DNA of 48,163 nucleotides, from NCBI GenBank assembly GCA_030604635.1, contig JAUVVL010000002.1:1-48163 (forward strand), in the 5' to 3' direction. A model generated the notes under the pieces. It ran no database searches. It was not told the origin of the DNA and was given only the letters and a program-made list of their open reading frames with translations. This DNA comes from Desulfobacteraceae bacterium (GTDB taxonomy: Bacteria; Desulfobacterota; Desulfobacteria; Desulfobacterales; UBA11574). Positions 17,339-41,950 of this stretch are shown here, in pieces. How positions within the stretch are numbered: the stretch's first letter is position 1; each line of letters begins with the position of its first letter. A program made the position numbers and the translations under genes.

Positions 17339-17782
17339 CTATTTCCGAGCGACTCTGGTAACCCCTTTTCCTCCGCATGTAACACAGGGCAAAATGGAGT
17401 TTATTCGGGCCTTTCCACTTCCATCACAATCCTTGCAAGTCTCTCTGGATCCCGGGACCGTAACCCTGCCTTTTCCTCCACATACACTGCATGAAAGCCA
17501 TTCCTGACCATAATGCCGGCCAGCTCCCTCACAATAGGCACATTCTATGGAGGGCTCTTTGACGGTGACGAAACCCTTTCCCGCACATGTAGTACATGTA
17601 ATCCTCTGGCCAGGATGTTCACCAGTTCCTTCACAAAAGGGACAATCGAATGCGGGCTCAGAAGCCTTTATCATCCCCTTTCCTCCGCATACCTGACATT
17701 TAGATAGTGGAGACAGAATCCCGAAAGGATCCAATCCCTCGCCATTACAGTAAGCACATTTCTTTTCAGTAAACATGGCCAT
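17339..17782 (-). CDS. Stand-alone DnaJ-type zinc-finger protein, 8 CxxCxGxG repeats
   Basis: CAYCNGEG, CQVCGGKG, CPFCEGTG, CTTCAGKG, CAYCEGAG, CSVCGGKG, CKDCDGSG, CVTCGGKG. No J-domain. Confidence 0.85.
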   Translation of the reverse strand: MAMFTEKKCAYCNGEGLDPFGILSPLSKCQVCGGKGMIKASEPAFDCPFCEGTGEHPGQRITCTTCAGKGFVTVKEPSIECAYCEGAGRHYGQEWLSCSVCGGKGRVTVPGSRETCKDCDGSGKARINSILPCVTCGGKGVTRVARK

Positions 17783-17866
17783 CTCCTTTCTGTTTTAAAA
17801 GGGCCAGGTTCTTGCGTGCCTCTAAACTTGTAAAGAATATGGGCCAGGGCAAGCGACGGATCTTGC

Positions 17867-18601
17867 TTATCTGGCCACCTGGATGCTGTAAAAATCTCCC
17901 CTTTTTTCATAAGTTAATAATGAATTAGTTTTCAGTTCCTCAAGGCATTGAGCCAATTCGTCTCTGGCCTCGATAATTCTCGTTTTAGAAATTCCAGGAG
18001 ACTTTAGAAGATCACTTTCCCTGATTCGAAGTGTTTTCTGTTTCCCCTGATCTGCAATGGAAGAATAGATCTGAAATGCAGAGGGAGAAAGGTTGTCGCG
18101 GGTCTGGAAAAGCAATTTGTCCATCTTTTCTTGCAGAGCAAGATTGGAATTAATATATTTTATAATGGCAAAGTGCTTCGGGTTTTTTTCTTCCACTTCA
18201 ATTTCATTAGCAATCTCTTCGTATTTGAGCTTAAAGGTCTTTTGCAAGTTTACTCTATTTCCATTCTGCGAGAGTTTGGTTTCAGTATCTCTTATTTTTC
18301 CATTAAGGCTCTCTATGGTCATGAACGTATTATTAATATCTTGAATTTTCGGTATTAGTTCTTCGACAAATTGATTTATTCCCCGGTTAACTTCGCTCTC
18401 CTTTTGCTTTACTTCTCTGAAGAGAGGAGCAATTTCTGTGTCGATAATTTTCAGTTTTGCCTGCCATTCCGCTTCTGTGAAAGCCTCAGTCAGGTCTTCC
18501 AACTCCTGTTTGCTTCCTTCCTTTTTTGTTTCAAGTTTGGAAATTTCCTCTTTTTTTGCTTTGATCTTTTCCTGCAATTCTTCTATCTTTTTGTTCGCCA
18601 T
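17867..18601 (-). CDS. Coiled-coil protein with C-terminal wHTH-like domain
   Basis: Start set at ATG 18601 (MANKKIEELQEKIKAKKEE..) with a GGAGAGGGAA RBS. Long K/E heptad region. C-terminal SKTRIIEARDELAQCLEELKTNSLLTYEKRGDFYSI. Confidence 0.5.
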   Translation of the reverse strand: MANKKIEELQEKIKAKKEEISKLETKKEGSKQELEDLTEAFTEAEWQAKLKIIDTEIAPLFREVKQKESEVNRGINQFVEELIPKIQDINNTFMTIESLNGKIRDTETKLSQNGNRVNLQKTFKLKYEEIANEIEVEEKNPKHFAIIKYINSNLALQEKMDKLLFQTRDNLSPSAFQIYSSIADQGKQKTLRIRESDLLKSPGISKTRIIEARDELAQCLEELKTNSLLTYEKRGDFYSIQVAR

Positions 18602-18621
18602 TTCCCTCTCCTTCCCCAAAA

Positions 18622-18921
18622 TCAATCTTTTGTTTCCTTTTCTGCCTCTTCTTCCGGTCTTACATGGACTACCCCTTTGCCATGGCAGTTCCAGCAAAAG
18701 AGCTTGCTTCTGTAATAAACGCCGGTGCCCTCACAAGCGGGGCAGGTCTCATAAGGTTTTATGACATAAACGGTCTTATGGCCGTTGCAAACCGGGCAGT
18801 TTGAAAGAGGAGATAAGAGTTTAAATGGGTCTTTACCCTTCCCCTTGCAAAATACACAGGGAATTTTCTCCATCTCAGGCAAGATCGTTTCCGCGGACTT
18901 TTTTCTTCGCCTCTTAACCAT
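18622..18921 (-). CDS. Stand-alone DnaJ-type zinc-finger protein, 4 repeats
   Basis: CVFCKGKG, CPVCNGHK, CPACEGTG, CWNCHGKG. Confidence 0.8.
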   Translation of the reverse strand: MVKRRRKKSAETILPEMEKIPCVFCKGKGKDPFKLLSPLSNCPVCNGHKTVYVIKPYETCPACEGTGVYYRSKLFCWNCHGKGVVHVRPEEEAEKETKD

Positions 18922-18959
18922 CTTTTCTATCCTCCTTTTTATAACCTAAATTGCTCAAC

Positions 18960-19367
18960 TTAAGCATAAGTCTCGATAGTTTTTTTCCATTCCTTAAGGT
19001 TCCTGGCAAAAAGAAAAAATACTCTTTTAAGGCTATCACTCTGTTGCATGAGTTGCAGTTGCTCCACCTTCTTTTTGGGAACCCAATCCCTTAGTACAAT
19101 TGACGTGTCTTTTAGAGAATTCAATGATATCTCAAAAAGCTTGTTTGCCCCTTGCAGGAATATAAGGCGCTCTTTGGTCAGATATAGGTAACCGGGTTTC
19201 CAGTTGGCCCTGGTCACCATGCCATCCTGATAACTTGCCTGCCCGGACATGATGACATCTTCTCCTTCGATATCAGAAGGCATCTCCATCTCCCGGTGTA
19301 TCTCCAGGCCGCTCCTTAACCTCAATTGCGTCTGAGGATTAAAACGGCCGTACCCTGTCTTCTTCAT
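18960..19367 (-). CDS. PH/GRAM-like domain protein
   Basis: NWKPGYLYLTKERLIFLQG..RVFFLFARNLKEWKKTIE. Paralogous to the N-terminus of 4973..5872 and to the repeats of 9830..10834. Confidence 0.55.
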   Translation of the reverse strand: MKKTGYGRFNPQTQLRLRSGLEIHREMEMPSDIEGEDVIMSGQASYQDGMVTRANWKPGYLYLTKERLIFLQGANKLFEISLNSLKDTSIVLRDWVPKKKVEQLQLMQQSDSLKRVFFLFARNLKEWKKTIETYA

Positions 19368-19388
19368 CGCACCTGTATCCCTCTCGGT

Positions 19389-19446
19389 AATAGTTCAGCT
19401 ATTTTTAGACAGGATAAACAGGATTGACATGATAGTTTTTTTCATC
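19389..19446. repeat. Dispersed repeat R3-left (copy 1)
   Basis: taatagttcagctatttttagacaggataaacaggattgacatgatagtttttttcatc is nearly identical to 46651..46709. Confidence 0.8.
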
Positions 19447-19457
19447 CTGTTGATTTG

Positions 19458-19829: not shown

Positions 19830-19846
19830 ATTACCTCCTTCAGGTT

Positions 19847-19926: not shown

Positions 19927-21951
19927 TTATCCGTATACCATCTCCGACAACCTTGTCAGATCCTCCACCCCTACGATCTGATTTGGAAAAAGGGGGACCT
20001 GGACGATATTATATTCCGGATTCTTTTGGGACAACTTTTGAATATATCTCTGCTCACCCCCCCTCTTGGAAGAACAAAAAGCACAACCTGATGGAGGTGT
20101 GACCATGTTGACGAATATATTGCTGCACGGAACACCCAATCTCTTTACCGATGCAATAAGCCGGGTGGTTTCTTCTACGCCCATGGCCTCAGGGATGGTC
20201 ACGGTAACCAGTTGACTGGCCTCCGGATTTGTAAGCATGTCATGTATTTTATTGACCAGTTGGGTTGATTTCAGAATCCTGTTTCCCAGTTCCTTCAGAT
20301 TGGTCAGGGCTATCTGGACCTGGTACTTGACCAGGCTGCGATAAGCACGGCTCAACCAGTCTCTTACCAGGTTGGGAAACTCAAGGAGAACCAGGAGATG
20401 GCCGGTGGGGGCGGTGTCCAGGATATACCAGTCAAACTTCTTCTCATTAATAAATTCGGTGATCTTTTCCAGCGCGAAGACCTCGTTCATGCCCGGCGGC
20501 ACGGTACGGGCAAACACGGCCATCACATTGCGGTCAAAACGCAGTTCCGTGATAGTCTCTCGCATGCTCTCCCAGGTATCAAAGGCATCCCGGATAATTG
20601 CCCGGTAATCTTCGATAAAATCATGGAGAAGATGCCCCGAATCGATCTCCATGGCAAAAAGATTGGGCATTGGGGATTGAAGATTGAAGATTGAAGATTG
20701 AAGATTTTGGTGTATCGGCGTAAGCTTATCTCCTATTTCCATTGCAAAGCTGTCCGCCAGAGAATGGGCAGGATCGACCGAATAGATCAGCACCTTTTGA
20801 TCAGGATATGTTTTGGCCAGATGGACAGCCATGGCAGCAGCCATTGAGGTCTTGCCCACCCCGCCCTTGCCCCCGAACATGACAAATTTCACATCCGGGT
20901 CAATCGAGGGACGACTTGTTGCGGGTACCTGAGAAACACCAGACTCGTTTGTATTAGCCTCCACCTCTATAGTTTGAATTTTGTCCATGAGAACATCCGC
21001 ATATTTTCCCAGGCTACTTATCCCCTGAACCTCATAAGGGAAAAGGGGCGTCTTGATCAGGTTGTAACCTTCAAACGCCTTTTCAATCTCCCTTATAGAT
21101 TCCGATTGATCCGCAATCTTGGAAGCACAAAACGGGCAGGTCCCATTGCTCCCCCTTACCCGGTTGATTACAATGTTGTTTACCTGGATCTGTTTATCTT
21201 TCAAAGCCCTGAGCAAATCTCCCGTCTCTTCGATGGCCATTACCTCGGGGATAAGCACCGGCACAAACTCGGTCTGTTCTCGATGGGTAAGCATTTCCTT
21301 GACGGACTTGAAGTCTGCCCGCATCTTTTCCACCATCTGATCCACGCGATCCCCCTCGTGATACTTGCTCCCCGACCTATAGAGACGAGGATGGATCTTA
21401 TATTTCAGGAGGGACTGATCCACCACATCCATCCACTCATCCATCATTTGGGGCATATCCAGGAGACGGAGGGTATGCCCGGTGGGAGCAGTGTCCAGCA
21501 CGATGATATCCGCTTCCTGAGGTTGATACCAGGTATATTTATATTTGTCGGCAACATGTAAGAATATCATCATATCATCCATGCCCGGAAGAGAAAAAGA
21601 GAGGAATTCCTTGACGTTGATCTGCCCGTAAAATCCGGCCCGTTTGATGATCTCGTTGATTTCCTTTTGATGCTTCTTCTTGAAAACTTCAAGCAGCGGG
21701 ACAGGCTCAATTTCCAGGGCCTCAAGGTTTGGTATCCCGTCAACACTCACCTTGTGTGGGCCAATGTGCCTCCCCAGGCTATCCCCCACGGAATGGGCCG
21801 GGTCACTGGAGATAAGCAGTATCTTTTTCGACGGGTTAAGTTTGGCCAGGCAGAGTGCCGAGGCCGCAGCAGAAGTAGTTTTTCCCGTGCCTCCTTTACC
21901 GCCAAAGATGACAAGTTTCAAATTCTCATTACTTAAAAAGCTGGGCAGCAT
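19927..21951 (-). CDS. Internally duplicated Get3/TRC40/ArsA-family ATPase, copy 2
   Basis: GGKGGTGKTT and GGKGGVGKTS P-loops, DPAHSV/DPAHSL, DTAPTGHT/L x2, CxxC motifs CPFCASKI and CAFCSSKR. ATG 21951 preferred over GTG 21960. Confidence 0.9.
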   Translation of the reverse strand: MLPSFLSNENLKLVIFGGKGGTGKTTSAAASALCLAKLNPSKKILLISSDPAHSVGDSLGRHIGPHKVSVDGIPNLEALEIEPVPLLEVFKKKHQKEINEIIKRAGFYGQINVKEFLSFSLPGMDDMMIFLHVADKYKYTWYQPQEADIIVLDTAPTGHTLRLLDMPQMMDEWMDVVDQSLLKYKIHPRLYRSGSKYHEGDRVDQMVEKMRADFKSVKEMLTHREQTEFVPVLIPEVMAIEETGDLLRALKDKQIQVNNIVINRVRGSNGTCPFCASKIADQSESIREIEKAFEGYNLIKTPLFPYEVQGISSLGKYADVLMDKIQTIEVEANTNESGVSQVPATSRPSIDPDVKFVMFGGKGGVGKTSMAAAMAVHLAKTYPDQKVLIYSVDPAHSLADSFAMEIGDKLTPIHQNLQSSIFNLQSPMPNLFAMEIDSGHLLHDFIEDYRAIIRDAFDTWESMRETITELRFDRNVMAVFARTVPPGMNEVFALEKITEFINEKKFDWYILDTAPTGHLLVLLEFPNLVRDWLSRAYRSLVKYQVQIALTNLKELGNRILKSTQLVNKIHDMLTNPEASQLVTVTIPEAMGVEETTRLIASVKRLGVPCSNIFVNMVTPPSGCAFCSSKRGGEQRYIQKLSQKNPEYNIVQVPLFPNQIVGVEDLTRLSEMVYG
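20675..20702. repeat. Heptamer array (GATTGAA x4) inside Get3-like copy 2, encoding QNLQSSIFNL
   Basis: Same position and same peptide (TPIHQNLQSSIFNL) as in copy 1 (3630..3657). Confidence 0.9.
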
Positions 21952-22008
21952 TGCTATCACCTATTCTACTATCACACGATAGTGTCCGTTGTTTGTTGCT
22001 GGCAATAG

Positions 22009-22116: not shown

Positions 22117-22149
22117 TATTAGTCCACTGACCACTTCATTCCCTGGTCA

Positions 22150-23587: not shown

Positions 23588-23791
23588 TTACCCTTCACGG
23601 ACCTGATACTTTAATCCCTTCTTAACAAATCTACCCTGCCAGACCATATCCCTGCACAGTTGTTCCGCATAATCGCCACTGATGCCCATCTCCTTTCCAA
23701 TGGCTGTTGGGTGTGCAGTACCTCCCAACTTTTTAACGGCCCCCAAAATTTCTTTTTCCCTGGATGTTAAATTTGCCATTTTATACTTCAT
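23588..23791 (-). CDS. Small wHTH protein (S-x-D-Y-A-x-x-L-C family)
   Basis: REKEILGAVKKLGGTAHPTAIGKEMGISGDYAEQLCRDMVWQGRFVKKGLKYQV. ATG 23791 has an AAAGGAGAG RBS; the ORF track starts at 23830. Confidence 0.6.
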   Translation of the reverse strand: MKYKMANLTSREKEILGAVKKLGGTAHPTAIGKEMGISGDYAEQLCRDMVWQGRFVKKGLKYQVREG

Positions 23792-23826
23792 GATTGTCTC
23801 TCCTTTCACTTTAACCTGGTCTTCCA

Positions 23827-24243
23827 TCAATTTACCCCCGGCCTCTCCGGCGCTGACCTTTGACGAACGATACCCTGACCATTACATCTGAGACAATGCT
23901 GCCTGTAGGAACCAAGATAAAGCCCGGTACCATTGCAATCGGGACATTCTACTGATGTCTCAATGGCCGTCACCCAGCCTTTGCCCTTGCAGGCCGTGCA
24001 GTGAAGCCGGTCAGTGGTATGAGGTTGTACGCCGCTGCCTTTGCAAAAGGCACATTTCACAACAGGTCCCCTTATTCTCACTTCCCCTTTGCCCTTACAT
24101 ACCTGACAGGCTGATAAATGGGAAAGTACTCCAAATGGGTCCCTGCCGGTTCCATTACAAAAGGCACACGTAACCGATACCATGTCTGCCATGAGCTTTT
24201 CGAGCTCTTCGGGACTGGTTGTTTTACCTCTTCTTCTGGCCAT
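23827..24243 (-). CDS. Stand-alone DnaJ-type zinc-finger protein, 6 repeats
   Basis: CAFCNGTG, CQVCKGKG, CAFCKGSG, CTACKGKG, CPDCNGTG, CLRCNGQG. Start at ATG 24243 (MARRRGK). Confidence 0.85.
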   Translation of the reverse strand: MARRRGKTTSPEELEKLMADMVSVTCAFCNGTGRDPFGVLSHLSACQVCKGKGEVRIRGPVVKCAFCKGSGVQPHTTDRLHCTACKGKGWVTAIETSVECPDCNGTGLYLGSYRQHCLRCNGQGIVRQRSAPERPGVN

Positions 24244-24257: not shown

Positions 24258-24464
24258 TCAACCCGTTTCTCTCATTCCAGCCAACCTCGTTCCACAGGAG
24301 GGACAGAATTTGCGGTCCTCCTTATAATAATAGCGCCACGTTTCTAAGCACTCAGGACATTCCATGTTGAGTGACTGGCCACATTCTGTACAAAACTCTA
24401 GATGTCCCCAGGTAGTGGTGCCACACCTTGGGCATTTAAACGCGCCTTTTGGATCTCCACCCAT
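24258..24464 (-). CDS. Double zinc-ribbon protein
   Basis: CPRCG..CTECG and CPEC..CPSCG pairs in 68 aa. Confidence 0.6.
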   Translation of the reverse strand: MGGDPKGAFKCPRCGTTTWGHLEFCTECGQSLNMECPECLETWRYYYKEDRKFCPSCGTRLAGMRETG

Positions 24465-25457: not shown

Positions 25458-25799
25458 CTAGGCATTTCTAAATTTCTTTATCGTTCTCCCCTTCACATAG
25501 TCCTCATAATCGCCTATTCTTCTATTTACATTATCTATCATGCGAATGTGTCCATATGCCCGAGCCGCCAGGATACCCTTCATATGATGGAGTTGAAATA
25601 ACAGGGCATCCGCTCCCTTTGTCGTAAGCTCGAACTTCCCCGGGGAAACAATCGACAAACAATCTTTTCTGTAAAGAGACTTTAATAAATACTCTGCATA
25701 CTCGGTGGTGATTTCCATTTTTCGGCTGATCTTCCGTTTGGTTATAGGACCAAGTTCCATAGCCGTCCGCAAAACTGTTAATTCGTTTGGGCTAGGCAT
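25458..25799 (-). CDS. wHTH protein (same family, longer C-terminus)
   Basis: LTVLRTAMELGPITKRKISRKMEITTEYAEYLLKSLYRKDCLSIVSPGKFELTTKGADAL. Confidence 0.55.
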   Translation of the reverse strand: MPSPNELTVLRTAMELGPITKRKISRKMEITTEYAEYLLKSLYRKDCLSIVSPGKFELTTKGADALLFQLHHMKGILAARAYGHIRMIDNVNRRIGDYEDYVKGRTIKKFRNA

Positions 25800-26118: not shown

Positions 26119-27045
26119 TTAGTTACAATAGGTGCTAATCAGGCCCATCACGCTATCTTGGATCTCCTTGGGCTCAAGGCCTTCACTACCGTTCTGTGAC
26201 TCTGCACCGAGAATATCCAGACATGTTTCTACAAAGGCCTGATCATCGGCCATGGGTCTTGCACCACAAAGTTTGATTACCTTTGCTATGATTATGCTGG
26301 CACGGATCGTTGGGCTCATCCCATTTTGACAGATCTCTCTGAAGCCCCGAACGACATCTACAATTCGCTGAGCATCCTGTTCTGAGACAGCCGCCTTGGC
26401 CTGCGCAATGGCAATCTCTGTTTCCCGGTCGTAATGGTCCAATTTTACGGTAATCATCCTGTCTTTCAGGGCATCCTGGGCTTTGTAAACCCCGGCATAT
26501 TCCTCAGGGTTGCTGGTAAATATAGCTCTAAAGTTCGGGTCCACCCTGAGATGACCTTCTTCCCCTCTGGCGGCCGGCAGGTCCAGCATCTTTTCTTCTA
26601 AGACCGAGAGTAATACATTGTTTGCTTCCGGCCGGGAACGGGTAAATTCGTCATAAATCAGGGTAAATCCATATTTGCAGGCCACGGTCAGGCGATCGTC
26701 CACCCATCTGGAGGATACATCCTCCTCTGTCTTGAGTACCGACTGGATATAATTGTCGACAACCTTCTTTCTCCTGAACCCGTACTGTCCCCCAACCAGA
26801 TCCGAAGAGCCGATTTCTTCATCCCCGTGGATCAATATTACCGGCTGTCCTAGCTGGGCCGCCATGTACAAGGCCAGCGTTGTCTTTCCTGTACCTGCCG
26901 GCCCGCTGAAGTGAACCGGATAACCTATCTGAACGTATCTCGTGGCCTTTCTGATTACCCCCTCCACATAGGGTGTTTCTACAAAGCCAGGCTGGCCCTT
27001 GGGAATCATTATCGGTTTTACCTCTGACATTGCGTGAATTGGCAT
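26119..27045 (-). CDS. gvpN: Gas vesicle AAA+ ATPase GvpN, copy 1
   Basis: FVETPYVEGVIRKATRYVQIGYPVHFSGPAGTGKTTLA, Walker B TLIYDEFTRSRPEANNVLLSVLEE. Strongly similar to 40509..41426. Confidence 0.92.
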   Translation of the reverse strand: MPIHAMSEVKPIMIPKGQPGFVETPYVEGVIRKATRYVQIGYPVHFSGPAGTGKTTLALYMAAQLGQPVILIHGDEEIGSSDLVGGQYGFRRKKVVDNYIQSVLKTEEDVSSRWVDDRLTVACKYGFTLIYDEFTRSRPEANNVLLSVLEEKMLDLPAARGEEGHLRVDPNFRAIFTSNPEEYAGVYKAQDALKDRMITVKLDHYDRETEIAIAQAKAAVSEQDAQRIVDVVRGFREICQNGMSPTIRASIIIAKVIKLCGARPMADDQAFVETCLDILGAESQNGSEGLEPKEIQDSVMGLISTYCN

Positions 27046-31505: not shown

Positions 31506-31510
31506 GGCAA

Positions 31511-33017: not shown

Positions 33018-34082
33018 CTAATGTATAACCTTCCTTGACCCAAGCACCTGCAGGTTGGTGTCAAACTTGAGTTCATAGATCACAATTGGGGGCCTGCCTG
33101 CCCGCTCAATATTGCGCGTGCGCATCTCTTCCCAGGGCTCCACCATTGCCCTCCACCCACCGTTCTCCTGGTTGAGGTTGACAACCCTGCCGGCCTCGCT
33201 GATGGCCTTTTCGAGCACTTTAATGCCTACCTGAGGGGCTTTTTCACGGATAACATTCATCAAAGGCTTGAGAAAGTGCCTAACCTGTTCTGCCCGCTTC
33301 TTCTTTTCATCTTTTATTTTTTCGTAAGAGCTGATCTTCAATTCCTGATCGACACGAAGCTCATAGAGACTCGGTTCTGTGCGGTGCTCCTTACGCCGCC
33401 GTTTTTTTTCCTCCCAGGGCTCGATCACGGCCATGCATCCGTCCCCCTCCCATTTCAGGTCCACCACTTCACCCAGAGCATCGAATGCCTCCTCAAAAAA
33501 CCCGGCAGCCATATCAGGGGTTACATTGTGCCTGGCCTCGTACAATTTTTTGCTGAAAATGCGCAGGCAAGCCTGCAATTGGGCCTTTTGCTCCTCCATT
33601 CTTCGCTTCTCCTCTGCCTCTTGCCTCTTTCTGGCCTCTCGCGTCTCCTTCCATGTAGCTGCTTCTTTCTCCAGAGCAACCACCCGGGGATCGGGACGAG
33701 TTATTCCCCTGGCCCTGCGCCATTCCATGGCCATCAGCTTCTTTCTGATTGCCACAACGGTGGCCGTGTTTATAGAAATTGGTTTGGCTTCTTTTTTATC
33801 CTTTTTTTTCTGAGGCATCCATGAATCCAGCATTGAATGCGATGATCTCTTCTTTGTAAATTCCTCGGAGGATACCTCGTGAAAAGCTATAGCTGAGGTG
33901 GTATCTCCTACAGGAGTTGCAGCCGCCGGTTTCGATTGAAGCCTTTGATATTCAAAATCCCTCTTTACAGCCTCGGATTCTCTTTCGATGGCAGATTTAT
34001 CCGGATACTTTTTCCCGAACATTCGTGCTTTTTCCTTAGCAATTTCGTCTATGGCTGTTTTTCTGAGACCTGCACTCTTCAT
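33018..34082 (-). CDS. Protein with two tandem GvpO-like domains
   Basis: Start at ATG 34082, overlapping the upstream TGA (ATGA). The two segments FEEAFDALGEVVDLKWEGDGCMAVIEPWEE..SLYELRVDQELKI and LEKAISEAGRVVNLNQENGGWRAMVEPWEE..VIYELKFDTNLQV mirror the GvpO core (..DSDGWLVSIEVIEK..LATYETKLDPDGNM). Confidence 0.6.
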   Translation of the reverse strand: MKSAGLRKTAIDEIAKEKARMFGKKYPDKSAIERESEAVKRDFEYQRLQSKPAAATPVGDTTSAIAFHEVSSEEFTKKRSSHSMLDSWMPQKKKDKKEAKPISINTATVVAIRKKLMAMEWRRARGITRPDPRVVALEKEAATWKETREARKRQEAEEKRRMEEQKAQLQACLRIFSKKLYEARHNVTPDMAAGFFEEAFDALGEVVDLKWEGDGCMAVIEPWEEKKRRRKEHRTEPSLYELRVDQELKISSYEKIKDEKKKRAEQVRHFLKPLMNVIREKAPQVGIKVLEKAISEAGRVVNLNQENGGWRAMVEPWEEMRTRNIERAGRPPIVIYELKFDTNLQVLGSRKVIH

Positions 34083-34579
34083 ACTCCCCCTCCTTTTACT
34101 GTCACCACTCCTTTTCCCCTGCACTCGACGCAGGGGAGCTTGCTGTGAGAATCTACCGCCCGCCCTTTGCATCTGCGGCACTGCTCCAGGGGTTCTCTGA
34201 CCGGCACCACACCCTTTCCTCGACAGACCACGCAGGTGATGTTGGTGCGGGGGCGTTCCTCGCCCCGGCCCTTGCAAAAAACGCAAATCATGGCAGGGGG
34301 GGTAACCGAAACCAGACCTTTGCCCCGGCACACAGGGCACGTACTTCCCCTGGGCTTTTCGCCGGAGCCCTGGCAGAACGCACACGGATAAGTTTCTTTA
34401 CGGAGTATCCCCCTGATCTGCTGACCCATTAGGCCCGGATCGTACTGCTCACCAATCTCTTTTACGTCAACCGGCTCCCAGAGCAAACCGCTGTCATGAA
34501 ACCGCGCTTCGCCGTCCCTCTGGTTTTCCGCCTTTTTCAGGTTATGCGAAGGTGTTACATATTCAAATTCCAAAGTCAT
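34079..34579 (-). CDS. Stand-alone DnaJ-type zinc-finger protein, 6 repeats (paralog of the N-terminal half of 28315..29256)
   Basis: CAFCQGSG, CPVCRGKG, CVFCKGRG, CVVCRGKG, CRRCKGRA (degenerate), CVECRGKG. Shared N-terminal motif GLLWEPV / GLIWSPV. ATG 34579 has a GGGAGGA RBS. Confidence 0.8.
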   Translation of the reverse strand: MTLEFEYVTPSHNLKKAENQRDGEARFHDSGLLWEPVDVKEIGEQYDPGLMGQQIRGILRKETYPCAFCQGSGEKPRGSTCPVCRGKGLVSVTPPAMICVFCKGRGEERPRTNITCVVCRGKGVVPVREPLEQCRRCKGRAVDSHSKLPCVECRGKGVVTVKGGGV

Positions 34580-35215: not shown

Positions 35216-35884
35216 TCAATTCATCAGGTATTCACCCAGCTCATCGAACTTTTCTTCATCACCTCCGGAGATGAGTATTTTAAAATAGGCCTTCATCTTT
35301 TCCCGTTTTTTTACCTCTTCAACCTCAATATCTTCGGCAAGTAGAGAAAGCACATCATGATAAGCCCCTATGAAAAGAACCCCCATTTCTTCCGCTTTAA
35401 GAGTCTGATTTATAGTGTCGGCAATAAATCTGTCCCTTTTGTCCATAAGTTTATCTCTGTGAAATCTGTATCCTATGTAAGCCGTAGTCCTTTCCCAGAG
35501 CGATTTGCTCTGGGCAAGCTTGAGGATTCGATCGTATTCTTCCTTAAGAAGCGTTATATCTTCTGTCTTTCTTATCTCAGCACCTCTTCTGATCAGGTCA
35601 AGGACAATCCGGTAATTTCTGCTACCTTTTTGTGCTCCTTCCTCGATAATCTTTTGACCAAGCTCGCCATCTGCCATTAATCCATCCTGATAGATTTTCA
35701 AATTATCGGCATTTAAATTCTTGAAATATTCCTCAATATTATCCCAAAATGTGGATACAGTCTGTTTATGTCTTTCCCACCGTTCTCTCCCGCATATCTG
35801 TGTACTTCTTTTGTCGATAGCAGGCGCGATGCCCCCTAAATCAGATTCTACATGAATAACCGGCACATAGAGTAATTTTCTCAT
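35216..35884 (-). CDS. Hypothetical protein (222 aa)
   Basis: Clean ORF between heptamer arrays. No motif recognised by eye. Confidence 0.5.
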   Translation of the reverse strand: MRKLLYVPVIHVESDLGGIAPAIDKRSTQICGRERWERHKQTVSTFWDNIEEYFKNLNADNLKIYQDGLMADGELGQKIIEEGAQKGSRNYRIVLDLIRRGAEIRKTEDITLLKEEYDRILKLAQSKSLWERTTAYIGYRFHRDKLMDKRDRFIADTINQTLKAEEMGVLFIGAYHDVLSLLAEDIEVEEVKKREKMKAYFKILISGGDEEKFDELGEYLMN

Positions 35885-35971: not shown

Positions 35972-36994
35972 TCAATTAACCACTGATCTCCTGACATCTA
36001 TCCACCCCCTGACATCCGCTTCCTTAAATGAACACCGGTCCTCCCGGCAGTAATCGCTGAGCATATGATAGGCCTTGTTGATCTTCTCAAACCTCTGATG
36101 AACTTCCGGATCACCCGGATACTTATCGGGATGAAACTTTTTGCTCAATTCCTTGTACGCTTCCCTCATTTCAAAAGTCTCGGCTTCTTCCCCTAACCCC
36201 AGCATTTTTCTGGCCTCGTTGATCTCATCAAATTCCGCCTTTTTAATCTCCAGCGTGTTGAAACTGTATGGGGGAAGGGGGCCTATAATTCTAAAATTGA
36301 TTGCGTTTTTGAATCGTTTGTCCAGTTGGTCCACTTTCAACTCAAAGGTTTTTTGATTATCTTTCTTTATTAAAAAAGCGCTGTTCATTATCATAGAATC
36401 ATCCATAACTTCATGCGTCCGGTAAGTTTCAGCTTCTTTTCTCAATACATTCAATATGTTTGAAACGCATTTATCCCTCTTTTTATCCAACGTGTCCTTG
36501 ACCATTTTCCCCAGGTTTATTTTAATTTCAAATAGTTGATCAGCCGGTTTAGATGCCGCTTCTTCCTTAAGTTTTTTAATCTCTTCTTCTCTTCCTATTT
36601 CCTTTAAAACCGTCTCCATGTCGCTCCATAGTGCCGCTACATCGAGCTCTATTTTGTTCTCCATTTCCTTGAGGTTTGTGTTGATTCGTCGATAGCCCTT
36701 TTTTAGGATTATCTTAAGCTCTTCCTGTCCTTGAACCATTGTTCCGAATTTCACCGGTATAATGTGATGACTTTTCATCACCTTTTCGATGACAGCTTGA
36801 TAAACGGCCAAATTGCGGAGGAGAGTTTCTTTGGGTAGAGAATCAAATTGTATGAGCGGCAAATCGCTAACCACAGCAGCGATATCCTGATAGGAAAAGG
36901 TGTAAACTTCTCCCTGATCTAAACCTATGGCGCCAAAATTTTCATGTTCACTTTTATTGACAAAACCATAAATGTATCTTCCTTCTATGGCCAT
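35972..36994 (-). CDS. gvpF: GvpL/GvpF-family protein fused to a C-terminal DnaJ J-domain
   Basis: N-terminal GRYIYGFV..GLDQGEVYTFSYQDIAAVVS and IIGPLPPYSFNTLEI (GvpF/L). C-terminal LGLGEEAETFEMREAYKELSKKFHPDKYPGDPEVHQRFEKINKAYHMLSD has the HPD tripeptide. Single uninterrupted ORF. Confidence 0.9.
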   Translation of the reverse strand: MAIEGRYIYGFVNKSEHENFGAIGLDQGEVYTFSYQDIAAVVSDLPLIQFDSLPKETLLRNLAVYQAVIEKVMKSHHIIPVKFGTMVQGQEELKIILKKGYRRINTNLKEMENKIELDVAALWSDMETVLKEIGREEEIKKLKEEAASKPADQLFEIKINLGKMVKDTLDKKRDKCVSNILNVLRKEAETYRTHEVMDDSMIMNSAFLIKKDNQKTFELKVDQLDKRFKNAINFRIIGPLPPYSFNTLEIKKAEFDEINEARKMLGLGEEAETFEMREAYKELSKKFHPDKYPGDPEVHQRFEKINKAYHMLSDYCREDRCSFKEADVRGWIDVRRSVVN

Positions 36995-37137: not shown

Positions 37138-39264
37138 TCACCGTACTTCCTTTAATGCTTCCTGAAAGTGCTTTCCTGAAACCAAAAGCTTGGACTCATC
37201 CCGGCCTCCATTTTGAATAAATTCTCTTATGGCTGTCATTGAGGCCTTCCTGCAAATTAATTCTATATCCGCTCCAACAAGCCTCTCCGTTGCACCGGCC
37301 AGTGCCTTAAGGTCCACGTTCTTGGCCAAAGGTTTCCCTCTGGTATGGACTTTAAATATCTCTAATCTTGTCTCCTCATCCGGGATGGGAAGCTCCAGCA
37401 GGAAATCGAATCTGCCGGCCCTGAGCAAGGCCGAATCGACAATATCCAGTCTGTTAGTAGCCGCCAGAACCACAATCCCCTTGAGTTCCTCGATTCCGTC
37501 CAGCTCGGTCAGAAATTGGCTGATGACGCGATCGACCACATGGGATGCAGCTTCGGAACCGCGCCTGGGAACCACACTGTCTATTTCATCGAAAAATATG
37601 ATACATGGAGAGGCCTGCTTGGCTTTCTTGAAAACCTCACGAACGCCTTTTTCGCTTTCTCCAACCCACTTGGAGAGGATCTCCGGGCCTTTGATTGAAA
37701 TAAAATTCACCTCTGATTCAGAGGCAACTGCCTTGGCAAGTAATGTCTTGCCTGTTCCGGGTGGACCATATAGCAATATACCTTTGGAAGGGTTTGTTTT
37801 GGCATGTTCAAACAACTTATCGTATTTCAGGGGCCATTCGATGGTTTCCTTTAGCACCCTTTTTATTTCGGAAAGTCCGCCGACATCGCTCCACTTTACA
37901 TCCGGAATTTCTGTGAACACTTCCCTGATGGCTGAAGGCTCAACTTCCTTAAGGGCCTCCATGAAATCATCCATAGTCACCTGAAGTTTCATCAAAGTCT
38001 CGTAAGGGATCTCTTCCATCTGGAAGTCAATGCTGGGGAAGAGTTCTCTCAGGGTAACCATCGCCGCTTCCCGGGAAAGGGCCTCCAGATCAGCACCAAC
38101 AAACCCATGAGTAATCTCGGATATACGCACCAAATCCACGTCCTCGGCCAGAGGCATTCCCCGTGTGTGGACATCCAGTATTTCAAGGCGGCCGTTTTTG
38201 TCGGGTATGCTGATTTCTATCTCTCGATCGAAACGTCCCGGCCTTCTCAAGGCTGGATCAAGGACATTGGGGATGTTGGTGGCGCCGATAACGATCACCT
38301 GACCTCTGGAGGAAAGGCCGTCCATCAATGCCAGAAGCTGGGCTACCACCCGCTTTTCCAGTTGTTTCTCGCCTCCCATCTCCTCCCGCTTGGGAGCAAC
38401 GGAGTCAATCTCGTCTAAAAATATAATGCTTGGAGCATGCACAGAGGCCTCATCAAATATCCTTCTGAGATGGGCCTCGCTTTCGCCATAGTACTTGTGC
38501 ATGATCTCCGGGCCGCTAATATGTCCAAAGTGTGCATCGGTCTCATTGGCCACAGCGCGGGCGATGAGGGTCTTTCCGCATCCGGGGGGACCGTGTAAAA
38601 GAACTCCTTTGGGAGGCTCGATGCCGAGCCTTTCAAAGACCTGGGGATATTTTAACGGCAGTTCGATCATCTCTCGAATCCGCCGGATTTCCTTGCCCAA
38701 CCCGCCGATATCTTCATAGGATATCCTGGCCATGGCCACACCAACGCCCTTCTTCTCCTGAATCCTCATAACAGTCTTGGGGTTGATTATCACCACGCCT
38801 GCGGGCTTGGTGGAAACAACTTTAAAATCCTGGGTTCGAGTTCCGATAAGTCTTGCTCTTACCATGTCACCCACTAATAGCGGCAAACCCTCCAGGAGGC
38901 TTCCGATGTAGCGGGCATCGTAGGAACGCATCAAGGTTAAAGGGGCAACAACAATTTTTTGGGCCGGCATGAAATCAGACTTTGTGACGGAAATTTTTTC
39001 GTCAAGGCCGACACGGGCATTTTCGCGGGTGATCCCATCCAGGCGAATCAAACTCTTGCCCCGGTCTTCCATATAGGCAGGCAAAACCTTGGCCACGGTT
39101 TCCCTTTTCCCTTTGATGGTCACCACATCTCCCACTTCAACCCCTATTTTTTTAAAATCGGCGGGGTCAAAACGGACAATGCCGCGACCTACATCTTTGG
39201 AACCAGCCTCTGCCACTTTTAGGGTAATGGTTTTGTTTTCTATGTTCTTTTTTTGGGCTTTCAT
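37138..39264 (-). CDS. Cdc48/VCP/VAT-like double-ring AAA+ ATPase (N-domain, D1, D2)
   Basis: N-domain [34 protein letters not shown]1 [11 protein letters not shown] / [10 protein letters not shown]2 [11 protein letters not shown] / IIFFDEIDS. Second-region-of-homology arginines are present. Confidence 0.92.
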
Positions 39265-39413: not shown

Positions 39414-39971
39414 CTAAATTGTCTTTATCTTAATCTCCAGTATCCCGTTTTTATATGACCAGGTCATATCCTCGGTCTTGACCGGGCGGGAGAGGAGGAC
39501 CTCTTTCTGATATTTTCTGCTTGCTCCCTCGGCAATAATATTCAGGATGTCCCCTTTAATCTCAAGGCTGATGTCCTTTTTCTCGATACCCGGCATCTCT
39601 GCAATAATATTAATCTCCCCGGGTTCTTCAAACACGTCCACGATAGGCTCGCGCATCTCCTCTACCACAGGACCCTTGGGAGTTTTTTTGATATTCCCAA
39701 AGGGCTGAATGGATGGCTTGCCGTCGGCCATGGTGCGTACCCTGACCCCGTAAACGCCTTTCAGATCCTTGAGCCCCTTGATCTTTTCGAGGCCGCTGAA
39801 ACGGATCTCGCCTGTTTTGGAAAGCTCTTCGCCCTTTTCAGCCAACTTAGTAGCTGTATCGATCAGATTACCCAGCCCCTTGAAGAGCCCGCCAAGACCA
39901 AAATCAATTCCAATGCCCTCGTCTTTTTTTTCTTCTTCAGGTTTTTCCTTCTTCTTTTTTTCTTCCGTCAT
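39414..39971 (-). CDS. Hsp20/alpha-crystallin protein (GvpH-like), copy 2
   Basis: IVDVFEEPGEINIIAEMPGIEKKDISLEIKGDILNIIAEG..NGILEIKIK. N-terminal LGGLFKGLGNLIDTATKLAEKGE. Confidence 0.8.
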   Translation of the reverse strand: MTEEKKKKEKPEEEKKDEGIGIDFGLGGLFKGLGNLIDTATKLAEKGEELSKTGEIRFSGLEKIKGLKDLKGVYGVRVRTMADGKPSIQPFGNIKKTPKGPVVEEMREPIVDVFEEPGEINIIAEMPGIEKKDISLEIKGDILNIIAEGASRKYQKEVLLSRPVKTEDMTWSYKNGILEIKIKTI

Positions 39972-40005
39972 TGCTTACTCCTATTTTTAGTCATTGGTCA
40001 TTGGG

Positions 40006-40097
40006 CTATAGGTTTCTTGCCTATTAATAAGCCAGGTCTTTGTCTCATATAGTGAACCATGGGCATAATAACAAAAACTGTTTTGTGCAAAGCTCAT
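40006..40097 (-). pseudogene. Decayed remnant of a four-helix-bundle (IVS protein) gene
   Basis: Retains ..FCYYAHGSLYETKTWL.. and the 3' end ctataggtttcttgcctat, matching 9335-9356 and 9455-9515. Large internal deletions and a frame change. Confidence 0.55.
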
Positions 40098-40145
40098 TCA
40101 CCAATGGCTAATGACCAGTGTGTACTGTTCACTGACCACTGTTCA

Positions 40146-40316
40146 TTATCTGGCACTTTGTCGTTTGCTAATAGTAATAAATTGGGCTCGATTCGTACCA
40201 GCCAGTTTAATTTCAACCAACTGACCTTCTTTTAAATCTGCTTTCCTTTGAATATTTTTGGGAATAGGAATTTTACCTTCTTTATCTACCCTTGCAAAAG
40301 CACGCATTAAAGCCAT
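40146..40316 (-). CDS. AbrB/SpoVT/MazE-type small DNA-binding protein (56 aa, below the ORF-track cutoff)
   Basis: MALMRAFARVDKEGKIPIPKNIQRKADLKEGQLVEIKLAGTNRAQFITISKRQSAR. The KEGKIPIPKNIR..L.EGQ.VEI pattern is the swapped-hairpin signature. G-rich RBS 8 nt upstream. Confidence 0.65.
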   Translation of the reverse strand: MALMRAFARVDKEGKIPIPKNIQRKADLKEGQLVEIKLAGTNRAQFITISKRQSAR

Positions 40317-40343
40317 TTGTATACCCCCCTTTTGAGATTGACG

Positions 40344-40392
40344 ATTCAGCCGTCGTAGCTAATTCAGCCGTCGTAGCTAATTCAGCAGCTAC
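40344..40392. repeat. 18-bp direct repeat (2 full units plus a partial third) just upstream of the AbrB-like ORF
   Basis: attcagccgtcgtagcta | attcagccgtcgtagcta | attcagcagctac. Confidence 0.85.
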
Positions 40393-40412
40393 TTTGGCGA
40401 AGTCGGCTTGGC

Positions 40413-40506
40413 GATTGATGATTGAAGGAATTCTGCCAATTTATTAAAAAAACGGAGCGTAGCGATTTCCACAAATATTCAATATTCAATCGACAATATT
40501 CAATTT
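40413..40506. mobile_element. MITE/REP-like element, family R1 copy c (inverted orientation)
   Basis: gattgatgattgaaggaattctgccaatttattaaaaaaacggagcgtagcgatttccac aaatattcaatattcaatcgacaatattcaat. Confidence 0.5.
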
Positions 40507-40508
40507 TA

Positions 40509-41426
40509 TTAGCAGTGTTGATCAATCAATTCTCCAATAACCTCTTTGACTTTGTCCTGGTTGGACTTGCTGCCGATGCGGCTGGTCTCTGATGACAAAA
40601 TATCCATACAGGTTTGTTTGAAAATTTCGTCATTCTTGTTGACCAAAGCCCTTCGGACCTTAAGAGTCTTGGCAATCATAACGCTGCCCCTTATGGTGGG
40701 AGCAAATTCGTACACATCGGAATCCCTCAGTCCCCGGACAATTTTAACAATCCTGGAGGCATCACCATTGGCAAGGCCTGATTTGGTTTCGGTGATACGA
40801 ACCTCCGTCTCTTCGTCGAAATGATCGAGATCAAGGGTGATCATTCGATCTCGGAGGGCATCCTGGCTGCGGTGCACGCCGGCATATTCCTCCGGGTTGC
40901 TGGTAAAAAGCGCCGTAAAGTCCGGGTCAACCCGCAGATAGTTCTCATCCCCCTCACGAGCCGCCGGCAGGTCCAGCATTTTTTCCTGGAGCACTGATAA
41001 AAGTACGTTATTGGCCTCGGGCCTGGAACGGGTAAATTCATCGTAAATGAGCGTGAACCCATACTTGCAGGCTACGGTCAGACGATTGTCCACCCACTTT
41101 TTTTGCAGATTCTCCTCGGTCTTAAGTACTGAATGGATGAAGTTATCCACCACCTTGCGCATACGATAACCATGCTCGCCGCCAACCAGGTCGGACGTGG
41201 AGAACTCCTCATCCCCGTGTATCATGACCACCGGCCGGCCGATCTTGCTGGCTACATGCATGGCCAGGGTGGTCTTGCCTGTTCCGGAAATCCCGCGCAA
41301 ATGAAGTGGAAAACCGGCCGCAATATAGGCCAGAGCCCTCTCGGTAATATCCTTTACAAACGGGGTTTCTACGAAGTTGGGCAGGGGACGCGGTTCCAAC
41401 ACAGTTGTCATTTCATCTATCGCCAT
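40509..41426 (-). CDS. gvpN: Gas vesicle AAA+ ATPase GvpN, copy 2
   Basis: FVETPFVKDITERALAYIAAGFPLHLRGISGTGKTTLA, TLIYDEFTRSRPEANNVLLSVLQE. Confidence 0.92.
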   Translation of the reverse strand: MAIDEMTTVLEPRPLPNFVETPFVKDITERALAYIAAGFPLHLRGISGTGKTTLAMHVASKIGRPVVMIHGDEEFSTSDLVGGEHGYRMRKVVDNFIHSVLKTEENLQKKWVDNRLTVACKYGFTLIYDEFTRSRPEANNVLLSVLQEKMLDLPAAREGDENYLRVDPDFTALFTSNPEEYAGVHRSQDALRDRMITLDLDHFDEETEVRITETKSGLANGDASRIVKIVRGLRDSDVYEFAPTIRGSVMIAKTLKVRRALVNKNDEIFKQTCMDILSSETSRIGSKSNQDKVKEVIGELIDQHC

Positions 41427-41497
41427 ATTTTCCTCCTTTAAAAATTAAAATCCGGCAGGCGGCATGAAAAAAAGTGAGCGATAGGCAGTCGAATATA

Positions 41498-41570
41498 CAC
41501 GAAAATCTGTGTAATCTGCGCCTGCCCCGTAGGTCCGGAAGATCGTACTGGGGCAATCTGTGTATTAAAA
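41498..41570. repeat. 75-nt dispersed repeat R2, copy 2, enclosed by a perfect 13-bp inverted repeat (41478-41490 / 41577-41589)
   Basis: gcgataggcagtc .. R2 .. gactgcctatcgc. Confidence 0.85.
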
Positions 41571-41596
41571 CTACCTGACTGCCTATCGCATTCCGC

Positions 41597-41950
41597 CTAC
41601 TTCTTACTCACAACCCCCTTACCCCCGCATTTCGAGCAAGGGAGGTAATCGCCTGATTTGATACCCTTGCCCTCGCAGTCGGGGCAGGTCTCATACGGCT
41701 CTTTTATGTTTACCATGCCTTTTCCGCCGCAGGCAATACAGGTCAGGCGCTGGTCACGGTGAATACCTGTGCCGCCACAGAAAACACACTCGATGGCCGG
41801 TTCCGGGATGGTCACTTCTCCCCGGCCGCCACAGACCTGGCAGGTGGAGAGCTTGGACAAAAGCTCAAACGGGTCGGTCCCCTTTCCCTGACAGAAGGCG
41901 CATGTGGCAGTGACCCTCCCCTCTTCTCCTTGTAATATTTCGATACTCAT
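41597..41950 (-). CDS. Stand-alone DnaJ-type zinc-finger protein, 6 repeats
   Basis: CAFCQGKG, CQVCGGRG, CVFCGGTG, CIACGGKG, CPDCEGKG, CSKCGGKG. Confidence 0.85.
   Translation of the reverse strand: MSIEILQGEEGRVTATCAFCQGKGTDPFELLSKLSTCQVCGGRGEVTIPEPAIECVFCGGTGIHRDQRLTCIACGGKGMVNIKEPYETCPDCEGKGIKSGDYLPCSKCGGKGVVSKK

Follow-up and report, generated by a model that had tools for sequence, protein, structure and literature searches.

Gas-vesicle gene clusters encode a family of J-less zinc-knuckle proteins with predicted serial modules

Introduction

What are six related DnaJ-type zinc-finger genes doing in a single gas-vesicle (gvp) gene cluster? The question is raised by a stretch of 48,163 nucleotides from a Desulfobacteraceae bacterium (GenBank assembly GCA_030604635.1, contig JAUVVL010000002.1, positions 1 to 48,163 of the forward strand; hereafter the window). 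An initial annotation of this stretch, made from its letters, noted six open reading frames (ORFs), here called ZnF1 to ZnF6, that consist mostly of CxxCxGxG motifs. It proposed that their products are client-specific holdases or thiol-active assembly factors for gas-vesicle proteins. We examined the six ORFs, their relatives in other genomes, and their predicted structures. The proteins belong to a family encoded in gvp clusters, and this family is probably an overlooked assembly helper for gas vesicles.

Results and Discussion

Six related J-less zinc-knuckle proteins

The six ORFs were present where the initial annotation had placed them (Table 1), all on the minus strand, from which almost the whole window is transcribed. 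The annotated counts of 8, 4, 6, 6, 6 and 6 CxxC pairs for ZnF1 to ZnF6, 36 in total, were reproduced, though only 34 of the pairs are strict CxxCxGxG motifs; the exceptions belong to ZnF2, with one CPVCNGHK, and ZnF5, with one CRRCKGRA. Scanning the window in all six frames placed the 34 strict motifs inside the six ORFs and none outside, and 100 shuffles of the window gave a mean of 0.23 strict motifs and a maximum of 2. As had been proposed for a check, the six proteins were compared with the Pfam model of the DnaJ cysteine-rich domain (PF00684, DnaJ_CXXCXGXG); every one exceeded its gathering threshold of 32.7 bits (whole-protein score), and none matched the J domain (PF00226). These results confirm that they are J-less DnaJ-type zinc-finger proteins. 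They were also described as stand-alone, which fails for ZnF4, as this protein bears two C-terminal winged-helix domains.

No existing family model describes the group as a whole. The full-length DnaJ equivalog TIGR02349 gave 32–50 bits against a cutoff of 377, with the alignment limited to the zinc-finger segment. The NCBIfam model NF058604 (RtpA, Anti-TRAP), an equivalog for a single-module protein of about 53 amino acids (aa), gave 29–51 bits, under its cutoff of 65. The Pfam Anti-TRAP family PF15777 was reached by five of the six proteins (32.5–39.7 bits against 32) in matches that overlap stronger PF00684 matches, and PF25436 (BSD2_CRD) gave 10.6–13.1 bits where reported, under its gathering threshold of 27. 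Neither Pfam nor NCBIfam has a family of its own for the ZnF group. The six are true paralogues, with 35–54% identity to ZnF6 and mutual phmmer E-values of 1e-13 to 1e-45; ZnF6 is the core family member. The isoelectric points (pI) are basic for ZnF1 to ZnF5 (8.5–9.2) and 6.55 for ZnF6.

The likely start codons of ZnF3, ZnF4 and ZnF5 are the ATGs at 24243, 29256 and 34579, respectively. From the ATG at 29256, ZnF4 has the same length as the protein-database entry for the window product. ZnF4 consists of a disordered N-terminus with the motif GLIWSPV, a zinc-knuckle domain (approximately 28786–29100) and two winged helices (approximately 28582–28743 and 28321–28521). The N-terminal extensions of ZnF4 and ZnF5 comprise about 50–65 residues, and that of ZnF5 carries GLLWEPV. 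The stop codon of ZnF5 overlaps the start of the next gene (ATGA), and an AAGGAGG ribosome-binding site lies within the 3' end of ZnF5, which is translationally coupled to the gene for a basic 354-aa protein.

Conserved linkage to gvp genes

The window is a very large gvp cluster, as judged from Pfam matches, with further genes assigned by phmmer or by eye. ZnF6 had 158 database homologues; where a source named them, the name was "DnaJ-class molecular chaperone". To survey their gene neighbourhoods, one genome per species was scanned with two peptide patterns from an alignment of the closer homologues (A3), which returned 80 loci (loci are designated L with a number), and the six-frame ORFs of these loci were searched with the window proteins. 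The gvp genes adjoined ZnF in 79 of the 80 loci, and the exception was a 2-kb contig. Co-occurrence with gvp genes had been suggested as a check in the initial annotation, with homologues generally outside gvp contexts as the outcome that would contradict it. No such pattern was seen in these loci, and the link is much stronger than the sequence of the window alone could show.

The loci span more than 12 phyla. They include Desulfobacteraceae, Syntrophaceae/Syntrophales, Desulfomonilaceae, Zixibacteria, Ignavibacteria, Dehalococcoidia, Anaerolineae, Planctomycetota, Acidobacteriota, Armatimonadota, Treponemataceae, Victivallales, Brocadiaceae and Actinomycetota, together with the cultured gas-vacuolate Polaribacter filamentus ATCC 700397 and two metagenome-assembled genomes (MAGs) labelled archaeal. 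The usual gene order is gvpA-(p211)-ZnF-gvpN, where p211 is a gene of the window (Table 1), and GvpN is encoded by the next recognised gene for 64 of 103 ZnF ORFs. Genes of the ZnF5 type follow GvpO or GvpN in other loci. Forty of the loci span 15 kb or more; all of these have GvpA/J and GvpN, 39 have GvpF, 39 a CDC48-like AAA+ protein and 36 Hsp20. In its recurrent association with gvpA, gvpN and gvpF in distantly related organisms, the family fits an operational definition of a gas-vesicle accessory protein as one whose gene is found specifically and repeatedly in gvp clusters.

A profile search of 1.84 billion cluster representatives yielded 415 with E <1e-10. Four distant representatives were looked up; three lie on contigs of 1.4–2.7 kb, and the context comes from L092, where ZnF stands between two gvpN genes in a gvp cluster. 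Judged from these neighbourhoods and from a search of plasmids (below), the ZnF family is the mark of one broad class of gvp clusters, not of gas vesicles generally. In the full-text literature, with subscription journals outside the coverage, no paper was found that connects gvp clusters with DnaJ-type zinc fingers, J domains or CDC48; a gvp-specific prokaryotic ZnF family with serial modules is apparently undescribed.

Predicted serial two-knuckle modules

The ZnF proteins are tandem arrays of a repeat unit of about 34 aa, and 101 of 112 ZnF ORFs contain exactly six CxxC pairs. In these 101 six-motif ORFs the spacing between pairs of knuckles is fixed (18 residues from motif 2 to motif 3 in 100 of 101, and 18–19 from motif 4 to motif 5), whereas the spacing within pairs is variable. 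The knuckle consensus alternates between Ca(F)CxGxG at odd and CxxCxGkGxv at even positions, and the variants with 4, 8 and 18 motifs differ from the six-motif form by whole pairs. All 12 cysteines of ZnF6 are invariant in alignment A3 and nearly so in wider alignments.

The AlphaFold2 (AF2) model of ZnF6, built on a 50-sequence alignment, had a predicted local distance difference test score (pLDDT) of 92.8 and a predicted template modelling score (pTM) of 0.84. Its strands lie just before the odd and just after the even knuckles, with paired lengths of (5,5), (3,3) and (3,3) residues, and its single bridges join residues 25/36, 63/70 and 97/104. The AF2 model of ZnF4 has an i/i+3 bridge (residues 70/73) between knuckles 1 and 2, for which a tight hairpin bringing these two knuckles together is the sole geometric option. 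This bridge, the strand pattern assigned by DSSP, the spacing statistics and the modular variants indicate a predicted architecture of serial two-knuckle zinc-ribbon modules, with a pairing of adjacent knuckles that we infer, as opposed to the nested two-zinc hairpin of DnaJ. The initial annotation had counted four motifs as the two zinc centres of DnaJ. That scheme does not carry over; the unit is the adjacent knuckle pair, repeated two to four times in series.

A Foldseek search with the ZnF6 model gave Anti-TRAP as the only match of low root-mean-square deviation (rmsd), at 1.1–1.4 Å over 29 columns with 45–48% identity. BSD2, also among the top structural matches, stood at 6.5 Å, and the DnaJ domains 1EXK and 2CTT at 13.6–14.7 Å with a template modelling (TM) score of ≤0.25. 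By analogy with Anti-TRAP, two adjacent knuckles most likely clamp one metal ion by four cysteines. The metal is presumed to be zinc.

Two subtypes were recognised. Type A (ZnF1, ZnF2, ZnF3 and ZnF6), to which 90 of 111 ZnF ORFs of other loci belong, is marked by the loop DPFxLLSxLS, conserved in module 1. Type B (ZnF4 and ZnF5) is marked by a short first loop and an N-terminal Trp motif.

Comparison with known zinc-finger proteins and the possibility of thiol chemistry

The DnaJ cysteine-rich domain is a protein-binding, client-transfer element. The ZnFs share the CxxCxGxG knuckle with this domain of DnaJ and Ydj1 (PF00684; 1EXK, 2CTT) and lack the J domain, the G/F region and the C-terminal client-binding domains. 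They have 4, 6 or 8 knuckles where DnaJ has 4, their predicted pairing is serial where that of DnaJ is nested (1+4 and 2+3), and the ZnF6 model cannot be superimposed on the DnaJ domains.

The plastid J-less factors BSD2 (6EKB), PSA2, LQY1, ORANGE and ZnJ6 resemble the ZnFs as CxxCxGxG proteins that are stand-alone or lack a J domain. Finger proteins of this type are assembly chaperones for one particular complex (PMC4806229, PMC7865324, PMC8999238), with PSA2 (PMC4806229) and ZnJ6 (PMC7865324) described as assembly factors or chaperones. The plastid factors are eukaryotic and have four motifs and two zinc ions, whereas the ZnFs have two to four serial modules and a proposed gas-vesicle client.

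Anti-TRAP (RtpA; PF15777; 2BX9, 3LD0), the best local match, holds one zinc by two adjacent knuckles and is a pure protein-binding module that blocks the surface of another protein. It is a single oligomerising module of 53 aa in Bacillus trp regulation, while the ZnFs join two to four modules covalently and occur in a gvp context. The closest relatives of the ZnFs in sequence and structure, namely the DnaJ cysteine-rich domain, BSD2-type factors and Anti-TRAP, are thus all protein-binding modules, and the ZnF proteins have no catalytic signature.

The ZnFs might also act as thiol-disulfide oxidoreductases or isomerases like plant CYO1 and LQY1, in line with the activity reported for the DnaJ cysteine-rich domain. 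DnaJ-like zinc-finger proteins with oxidising or isomerase activity do exist (ZnJ6, PMC7865324), and the six ZnFs contain 74 cysteines. These cysteines, however, are all in metal-binding knuckle geometry and nearly invariant, and the Desulfobacterales/Syntrophales affiliation of the closest loci suggests that the host is strictly anaerobic, in all probability, and its cytoplasm reducing. Moreover, GvpA has no cysteine, which makes thiol chemistry on GvpA unlikely and weakens that part of the initial proposal. We consider thiol-disulfide catalysis by the ZnFs very improbable.

Proposed function between GvpA and GvpN

We propose, by analogy with these relatives, that the ZnFs are protein-binding modules stabilised by zinc, which serve assembly as chaperones or adaptors between GvpA and GvpN, and we put the chances of this reading at about even. 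GvpA-family proteins aggregate without chaperones (PMC9501494), GvpF probably chaperones GvpA (PMC9501494, PMC11445434), and GvpN drives elongation and contacts GvpA (PMC11445434). A holdase or adaptor at the step from GvpA to GvpN is favoured by the place of ZnF between gvpA and gvpN and by its co-occurrence with Hsp20, the CDC48-like AAA+ protein and often the fusion of GvpF to a J domain. A chaperone-type role, as the initial annotation had suggested, also suits the company of the genes in the window, which comprises Hsp20, the CDC48-like AAA+ protein, DnaK and a GvpF/L that bears a J domain.

In the proposed mechanism, the ZnF proteins would be short rods of two to four independent modules that serve as multivalent protein binders during gas-vesicle assembly. 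A protein of the ZnF6 type would hold subunits of the GvpA family, which are prone to aggregate, or some other Gvp partner, or present them to GvpN, the AAA+ ATPase, and would work alongside Hsp20, the CDC48-like AAA+ protein, the J-domain GvpF/L and DnaK. The additional copies in the window appear to be duplicates of long standing whose elements for partner binding have diverged, namely the DPF..LS..LS loop in type A and the N-terminal Trp motif in type B. They would be specialised for further partners, and several of them may act together with a gvp-specific winged-helix family.

The same position in the operon is open to a structural explanation, in which ZnF rods decorate the GvpA shell like GvpC, or dock GvpN on the shell, with each module contacting one lattice unit. 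The slot gvpA-X-gvpN is that of gvpC in the Halobacterium locus L094 and in cyanobacteria. The tandem repeat, which reaches 18 motifs in one ORF of L055, would suit such a rod, as would the basic pI of ZnF1 to ZnF5 against the acidic GvpA (pI 4.5), although ZnF6 itself is not basic. The C-terminal zinc-finger domain of haloarchaeal GvpC is a small module likewise encoded between gvpA and gvpN, and in experiments the binding of GvpC to GvpN, GvpO and the accessory proteins GvpF, GvpH, GvpI and GvpL was traced to this domain (PMC9372576). The Halobacterium GvpC sequence, however, shows a single finger of the CxxC...H...H type fused to helical repeats, and homology to the ZnF family was rejected on this ground; the likeness is confined to operon position and perhaps function. 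The stretch between gvpA and ZnF6 also encodes two proteins that are better candidates for a GvpC-like part, p211 and an acidic 18-aa-repeat protein. Apart from repeat-driven and evidently spurious hits, no Pfam family, GvpC among them, matched either of the two. In addition, the genes that accompany ZnF are overwhelmingly of the chaperone type. A structural role is therefore, in our judgement, unlikely.

The repeat protein is encoded at 42012–43079 (-), between p211 and ZnF6. It is acidic (pI 4.3) and combines some ten copies of the 18-aa repeat EVADLISEFKAEGPERAR with a globular domain at the C-terminus, a layout that resembles haloarchaeal GvpC.

Association with winged-helix proteins

The window encodes nine copies of a winged-helix (winged helix-turn-helix, wHTH) domain with the motif S.DYA..C, seven of them stand-alone and two in ZnF4. 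No Pfam model recognises the family, and its 151 homologues are all unnamed or "hypothetical" save one that its source labels a DtxR-family regulator. Both homologues that were checked on long contigs (L097, L098) lie inside gvp clusters, which belong to other phyla. The architecture of ZnF4 is kept in 34 full-length homologues down to 37% identity, and one distant member is encoded in a gvp-type cluster (L091) that also has genes for ArsA, Hsp70, a radical-SAM protein, GvpL/F and Hsp20.

These associations raise the possibility of a regulatory module, in which the ZnFs, with or on the winged-helix paralogues, control gvp expression. They could be Anti-TRAP-like antagonists of a protein that binds nucleic acid, or could sense redox state through zinc thiolates and so tie buoyancy to the oxic-anoxic boundary. 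The domains are fused in at least two orders (ZnF-wH-wH in the 34 homologues, wH-ZnF-wH in the Actinomycetota cluster L097), further fusions involve type-A ZnFs, and one fusion homologue carries the database name "predicted transcriptional regulator". Most wHTH copies are basic, Anti-TRAP is a regulator and the best local structural match, and wHTH genes directly follow ZnF1 and ZnF3 and follow ZnF5 with one gene between. The adjacency alone is not significant; by a rough estimate, not a computed value, about 0.6 of the five unfused ZnF genes would have such a neighbour by chance, against 2 observed. It is the repeated independent fusions that constitute real evidence for a ZnF-wHTH connection. 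On the other side, wHTH genes occur in just 6 of the 80 loci, and the core ZnF of most clusters has none nearby. Nine wHTH domains and six ZnFs in an operon-like array far exceed a regulatory need, and regulators of other types (a sigma-54 activator, two-component genes) are already encoded in the cluster. The Foldseek matches of the ZnF4 wHTH pair were generic and include the RNA- or protein-binding winged helices of SelB, RPC62 and ScpB. We regard a regulatory function as improbable.

Winged helices had also been considered at the C-termini of the products of 17867–18697 and 42012–43079. The hidden Markov model (HMM) of the wHTH family matched neither, and the idea that every ZnF has a wHTH neighbour was dropped.

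Points that weigh against the assembly-helper reading

Several observations count against the ZnFs as assembly helpers of GvpA and GvpN. The functional assignment has genomic association and analogy as its whole basis, and the two-pattern genome scan reached only the closer relatives. The only recurrent fusion partner of ZnF is the winged-helix domain, usually a nucleic-acid binder, and no fusion of ZnF to a Gvp domain was found. In an anaerobe, the metal might possibly be iron, as in rubredoxin-type knuckles. A tblastn search with ZnF6 against 72,556 plasmids gave no match, although 44 of them carry a gvpA/gvpJ-family gene (including plasmids of Halobacterium, Nostoc, Octadecabacter, Methylocella and Rhodococcus); ZnF is thus no universal requirement for gas-vesicle formation. 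This absence covers the plasmid collection, with its gvp-bearing Halobacterium and Nostoc, and Bacillus and Serratia stood outside the comparison.

The "split DnaJ" version of the proposal, with the J domain on GvpF/L, the zinc finger supplied in trans and the DnaK of the cluster, also fares poorly. All three parts are present in the window, yet the arrangement is not a general mechanism, because ZnF is more widespread than DnaK (7 of 80 loci) or the GvpF-J fusion (39 of 85).

A more far-reaching form of the assembly-helper proposal is tentative, and we consider it rather doubtful. In this form ZnF would be a core Gvp protein of a broad CDC48/Hsp20 class of gvp clusters, in which the zinc-knuckle rod, and not GvpC, links GvpA or the shell to the elongation ATPase GvpN. 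Here the six ZnFs, the nine winged-helix modules and the short Trp motifs would form an adaptor network that routes Gvp clients to the ATPases and Hsp70.

Copy number and age of the paralogues

Six copies in one locus had been called highly unusual. One or two ZnF copies per locus are indeed typical, but the Anaerolineae-type loci L029 and L031 have four tandem ZnF genes each. The Phycisphaerales locus L055 has two 4-motif genes, one type-B gene and an ORF of 488 aa (2523–3986) that contains three complete 6-motif ZnF units (18 CxxC pairs) with Lys/Ala-rich linkers, six such units in all. Furthermore, ZnF3, ZnF4 and ZnF5 are kept by syntenic relatives. The metagenome contigs L089 and L090 are syntenic with the window at 18.9–34.6 kb and encode orthologues of ZnF5 (78% identity, L089), ZnF4 (67–68%) and ZnF3 (79%, L090). 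These identities are similar to those of the neighbouring gvp genes and exceed those of the paralogues to ZnF6. Since each tested paralogue has its own orthologue in the syntenic contigs, the ZnF copies are, as far as sequence comparison can tell, old and individually conserved genes, and the expansion is a lineage trait.

Genes of the cluster

The coordinates of the ZnF genes, the winged-helix genes and the main accompanying genes are listed in Table 1. The cluster contains gvpA, two GvpJ-like genes, GvpK, GvpO, two GvpG, three GvpL/F and two GvpN genes. It also encodes two Hsp20 proteins, an Hsp20-like C-terminus on the product of 4973–5872, the CDC48-like double AAA+ protein, two tandem ArsA-type ATPases, two B12-binding radical-SAM proteins, a DnaK paralogue, the sigma-54 activator and the two-component genes. 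Duplication affects much of the cluster.

Table 1. Position and features of the ZnF genes, winged-helix genes and accompanying genes in the window.
Gene	Position	Strand	Features
ZnF1	17339-17782	-	147 aa; 8 motifs, four modules; type A; PF00684 59.4 bits; followed by wH_a and wH_b
ZnF2	18622-18921	-	99 aa; 4 CxxC (3 strict), two modules, one degenerate knuckle (CPVCNGHK); type A; PF00684 39.1 bits
ZnF3	23827-24243 (ORF to 24261)	-	138 aa; 6 motifs; type A; PF00684 52.2 bits; double-zinc-ribbon gene upstream, wH_c after
ZnF4	28315-29256 (ORF to 29343)	-	313 aa; 6 motifs and two winged-helix domains; type B; PF00684 40.4 bits
ZnF5	34079-34579 (ORF to 34594)	-	166 aa; 6 CxxC (5 strict); type B; PF00684 45.7 bits; follows gvpO
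ZnF6	41597-41950	-	117 aa; 6 CxxCxGxG, three two-knuckle modules; type A; PF00684 42.2 bits; directly upstream of gvpN1
wH_a	16959-17189	-	winged-helix paralogue, directly downstream of ZnF1
wH_b	16635-16934	-	winged-helix paralogue, downstream of ZnF1 beside wH_a
wH_c	23588-23830	-	winged-helix paralogue, directly downstream of ZnF3
wH_d	25458-25799	-	winged-helix paralogue, downstream of gvpN2
wH_e	30928-31248	-	winged-helix paralogue
wH_f	31323-31514	-	winged-helix paralogue
wH_g	32760-33002	-	winged-helix paralogue, after the 354-aa protein gene
gvpA	44552-44758	-	shell protein; 68 aa, pI 4.5, no cysteine
gvpN1	40509-41426	-	AAA+ ATPase (AAA_5), immediately downstream of ZnF6
gvpN2	26119-27045	-	second AAA+ copy, three genes downstream of ZnF4
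GvpL/F with C-terminal J domain	35972-36994	-	J domain (HPD) at ~36053-36208; PF06386 200.8 bits, PF00226 55.4 bits
Hsp70/DnaK paralogue	5907-7670	-	assigned by eye; used as phmmer query
354-aa protein	33018-34082	-	basic, Lys/Glu/Arg-rich; no Pfam match; coupled to ZnF5; followed by wH_g
CDC48-like double AAA+	37138-39264	-	chaperone-type gene
Hsp20	39414-39971	-	chaperone-type gene
p211	43541-44176	-	directly after gvpA; in 32/80 loci; no Pfam family match
p222	35216-35884	-	in 31/80 loci; no Pfam family match

The J domain fused to GvpL/F is the only one in the cluster. Of 85 related loci, 39 encode such a fusion, among them those of Polaribacter filamentus (L058) and an Actinomycetota MAG (L097), and it implies that Hsp70 is recruited to the GvpF/L-GvpA complex. 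A literature search for this fusion found no report. DnaK-like ORFs were found by phmmer beside gvpA in L009, L010 and L032, and the related cluster L091 has an HSP70 Pfam match. Tandem-domain ArsA/Get3-like ATPases are encoded at 2887–4902 and 19927–21960 (-), and ArsA accompanies ZnF in 21 of the 80 loci; its presence in gvp clusters is an earlier observation (PMC2963123).

Other Cys4 modules are unusually frequent in the cluster. A double-zinc-ribbon (DZR) gene (24258–24464, -) lies directly upstream of ZnF3, and the gvp clusters L055, L097 and L098 have DZR genes too. Zinc ribbons related to these were found in the GvpJ-like 13032–13391, in 12549–12956 and at the end of 15798–16592.

Two paralogous B12-binding radical-SAM genes lie within the gvp cluster (14334–15713 and 29507–30895, -), as is likewise the case in L091, which suggests a post-translational modification of some gas-vesicle component. 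A role of ZnF as reductant or partner of these two enzymes was considered and rejected; a radical-SAM gene was found within 10 kb of ZnF in none of the 80 loci.

Two near-identical genes for four-helix bundles of the 23S-rRNA-IVS/bAvd-like type (9335–9763 and 10855–11283, -) flank a fusion of GvpJ and a PH domain (9830–10834). A third copy remains as a remnant (39987–40097, -) after gvpN1, and the family also occurs in the Actinomycetota gvp cluster L097. The PH/GRAM-like domain family has four members in the window (e.g. 4973–5872, 9830–10834 and 18960–19367, -) and includes one copy joined to a GvpJ-like N-terminus and one joined to an Hsp20-like C-terminus. An AbrB/SpoVT (MazE-like) ORF of 56 aa (40146–40316, -) lies downstream of gvpN1. 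A 56-aa gene has the same position in L001, L004 and L092, and those of L001 and L092 match the Pfam MazE_antitoxin model.

In regard to promoters, a sigma-54-type -24/-12 element (TGGCAT-N5-GTGCT; 44800–44815, -) lies 42 nt upstream of gvpA, and a perfect element (TGGCAC-N5-TTGCT; 46828–46843, -) lies upstream of the sigma-54 activator gene. The count of sigma-54-like matches in the whole window did not exceed chance, and only the positions of these two sites are suggestive.

Significance

Mechanistic work on gas vesicles comes nearly all from Halobacterium, cyanobacteria, Bacillus megaterium and Serratia. Mutants of gvpN arrest at the bicone stage. Gas-vesicle biology has yet to explain how GvpA, a very hydrophobic protein, stays soluble and comes to be delivered and inserted by GvpN. 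ZnF lies beside gvpA and gvpN in Thermodesulfobacteriota, Bacteroidota, Chloroflexota, Planctomycetota, Acidobacteriota, Zixibacteria and others, and in archaeal-labelled MAGs. Its conservation across phyla points to a different and widespread solution to the handling of GvpA and provides a concrete protein for testing.

The family may matter in practice as well. Many gvp clusters fail in E. coli when transferred for use as acoustic reporter genes (PMC10344784), and unannotated helper genes like ZnF are easily omitted from transferred clusters. The cluster of Desulfobacterium vacuolatum DSM 3385 (FWXY01000008, 1268–24724) does yield vesicles in E. coli, at 30 °C (PMC10344784). J-less DnaJ-type finger assembly factors were known before from plastids; what appears to be new is a prokaryotic, gas-vesicle-specific family of serial modules. 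It would carry the idea of such an assembly factor from plastids to prokaryotic organelles, in a new serial-module architecture.

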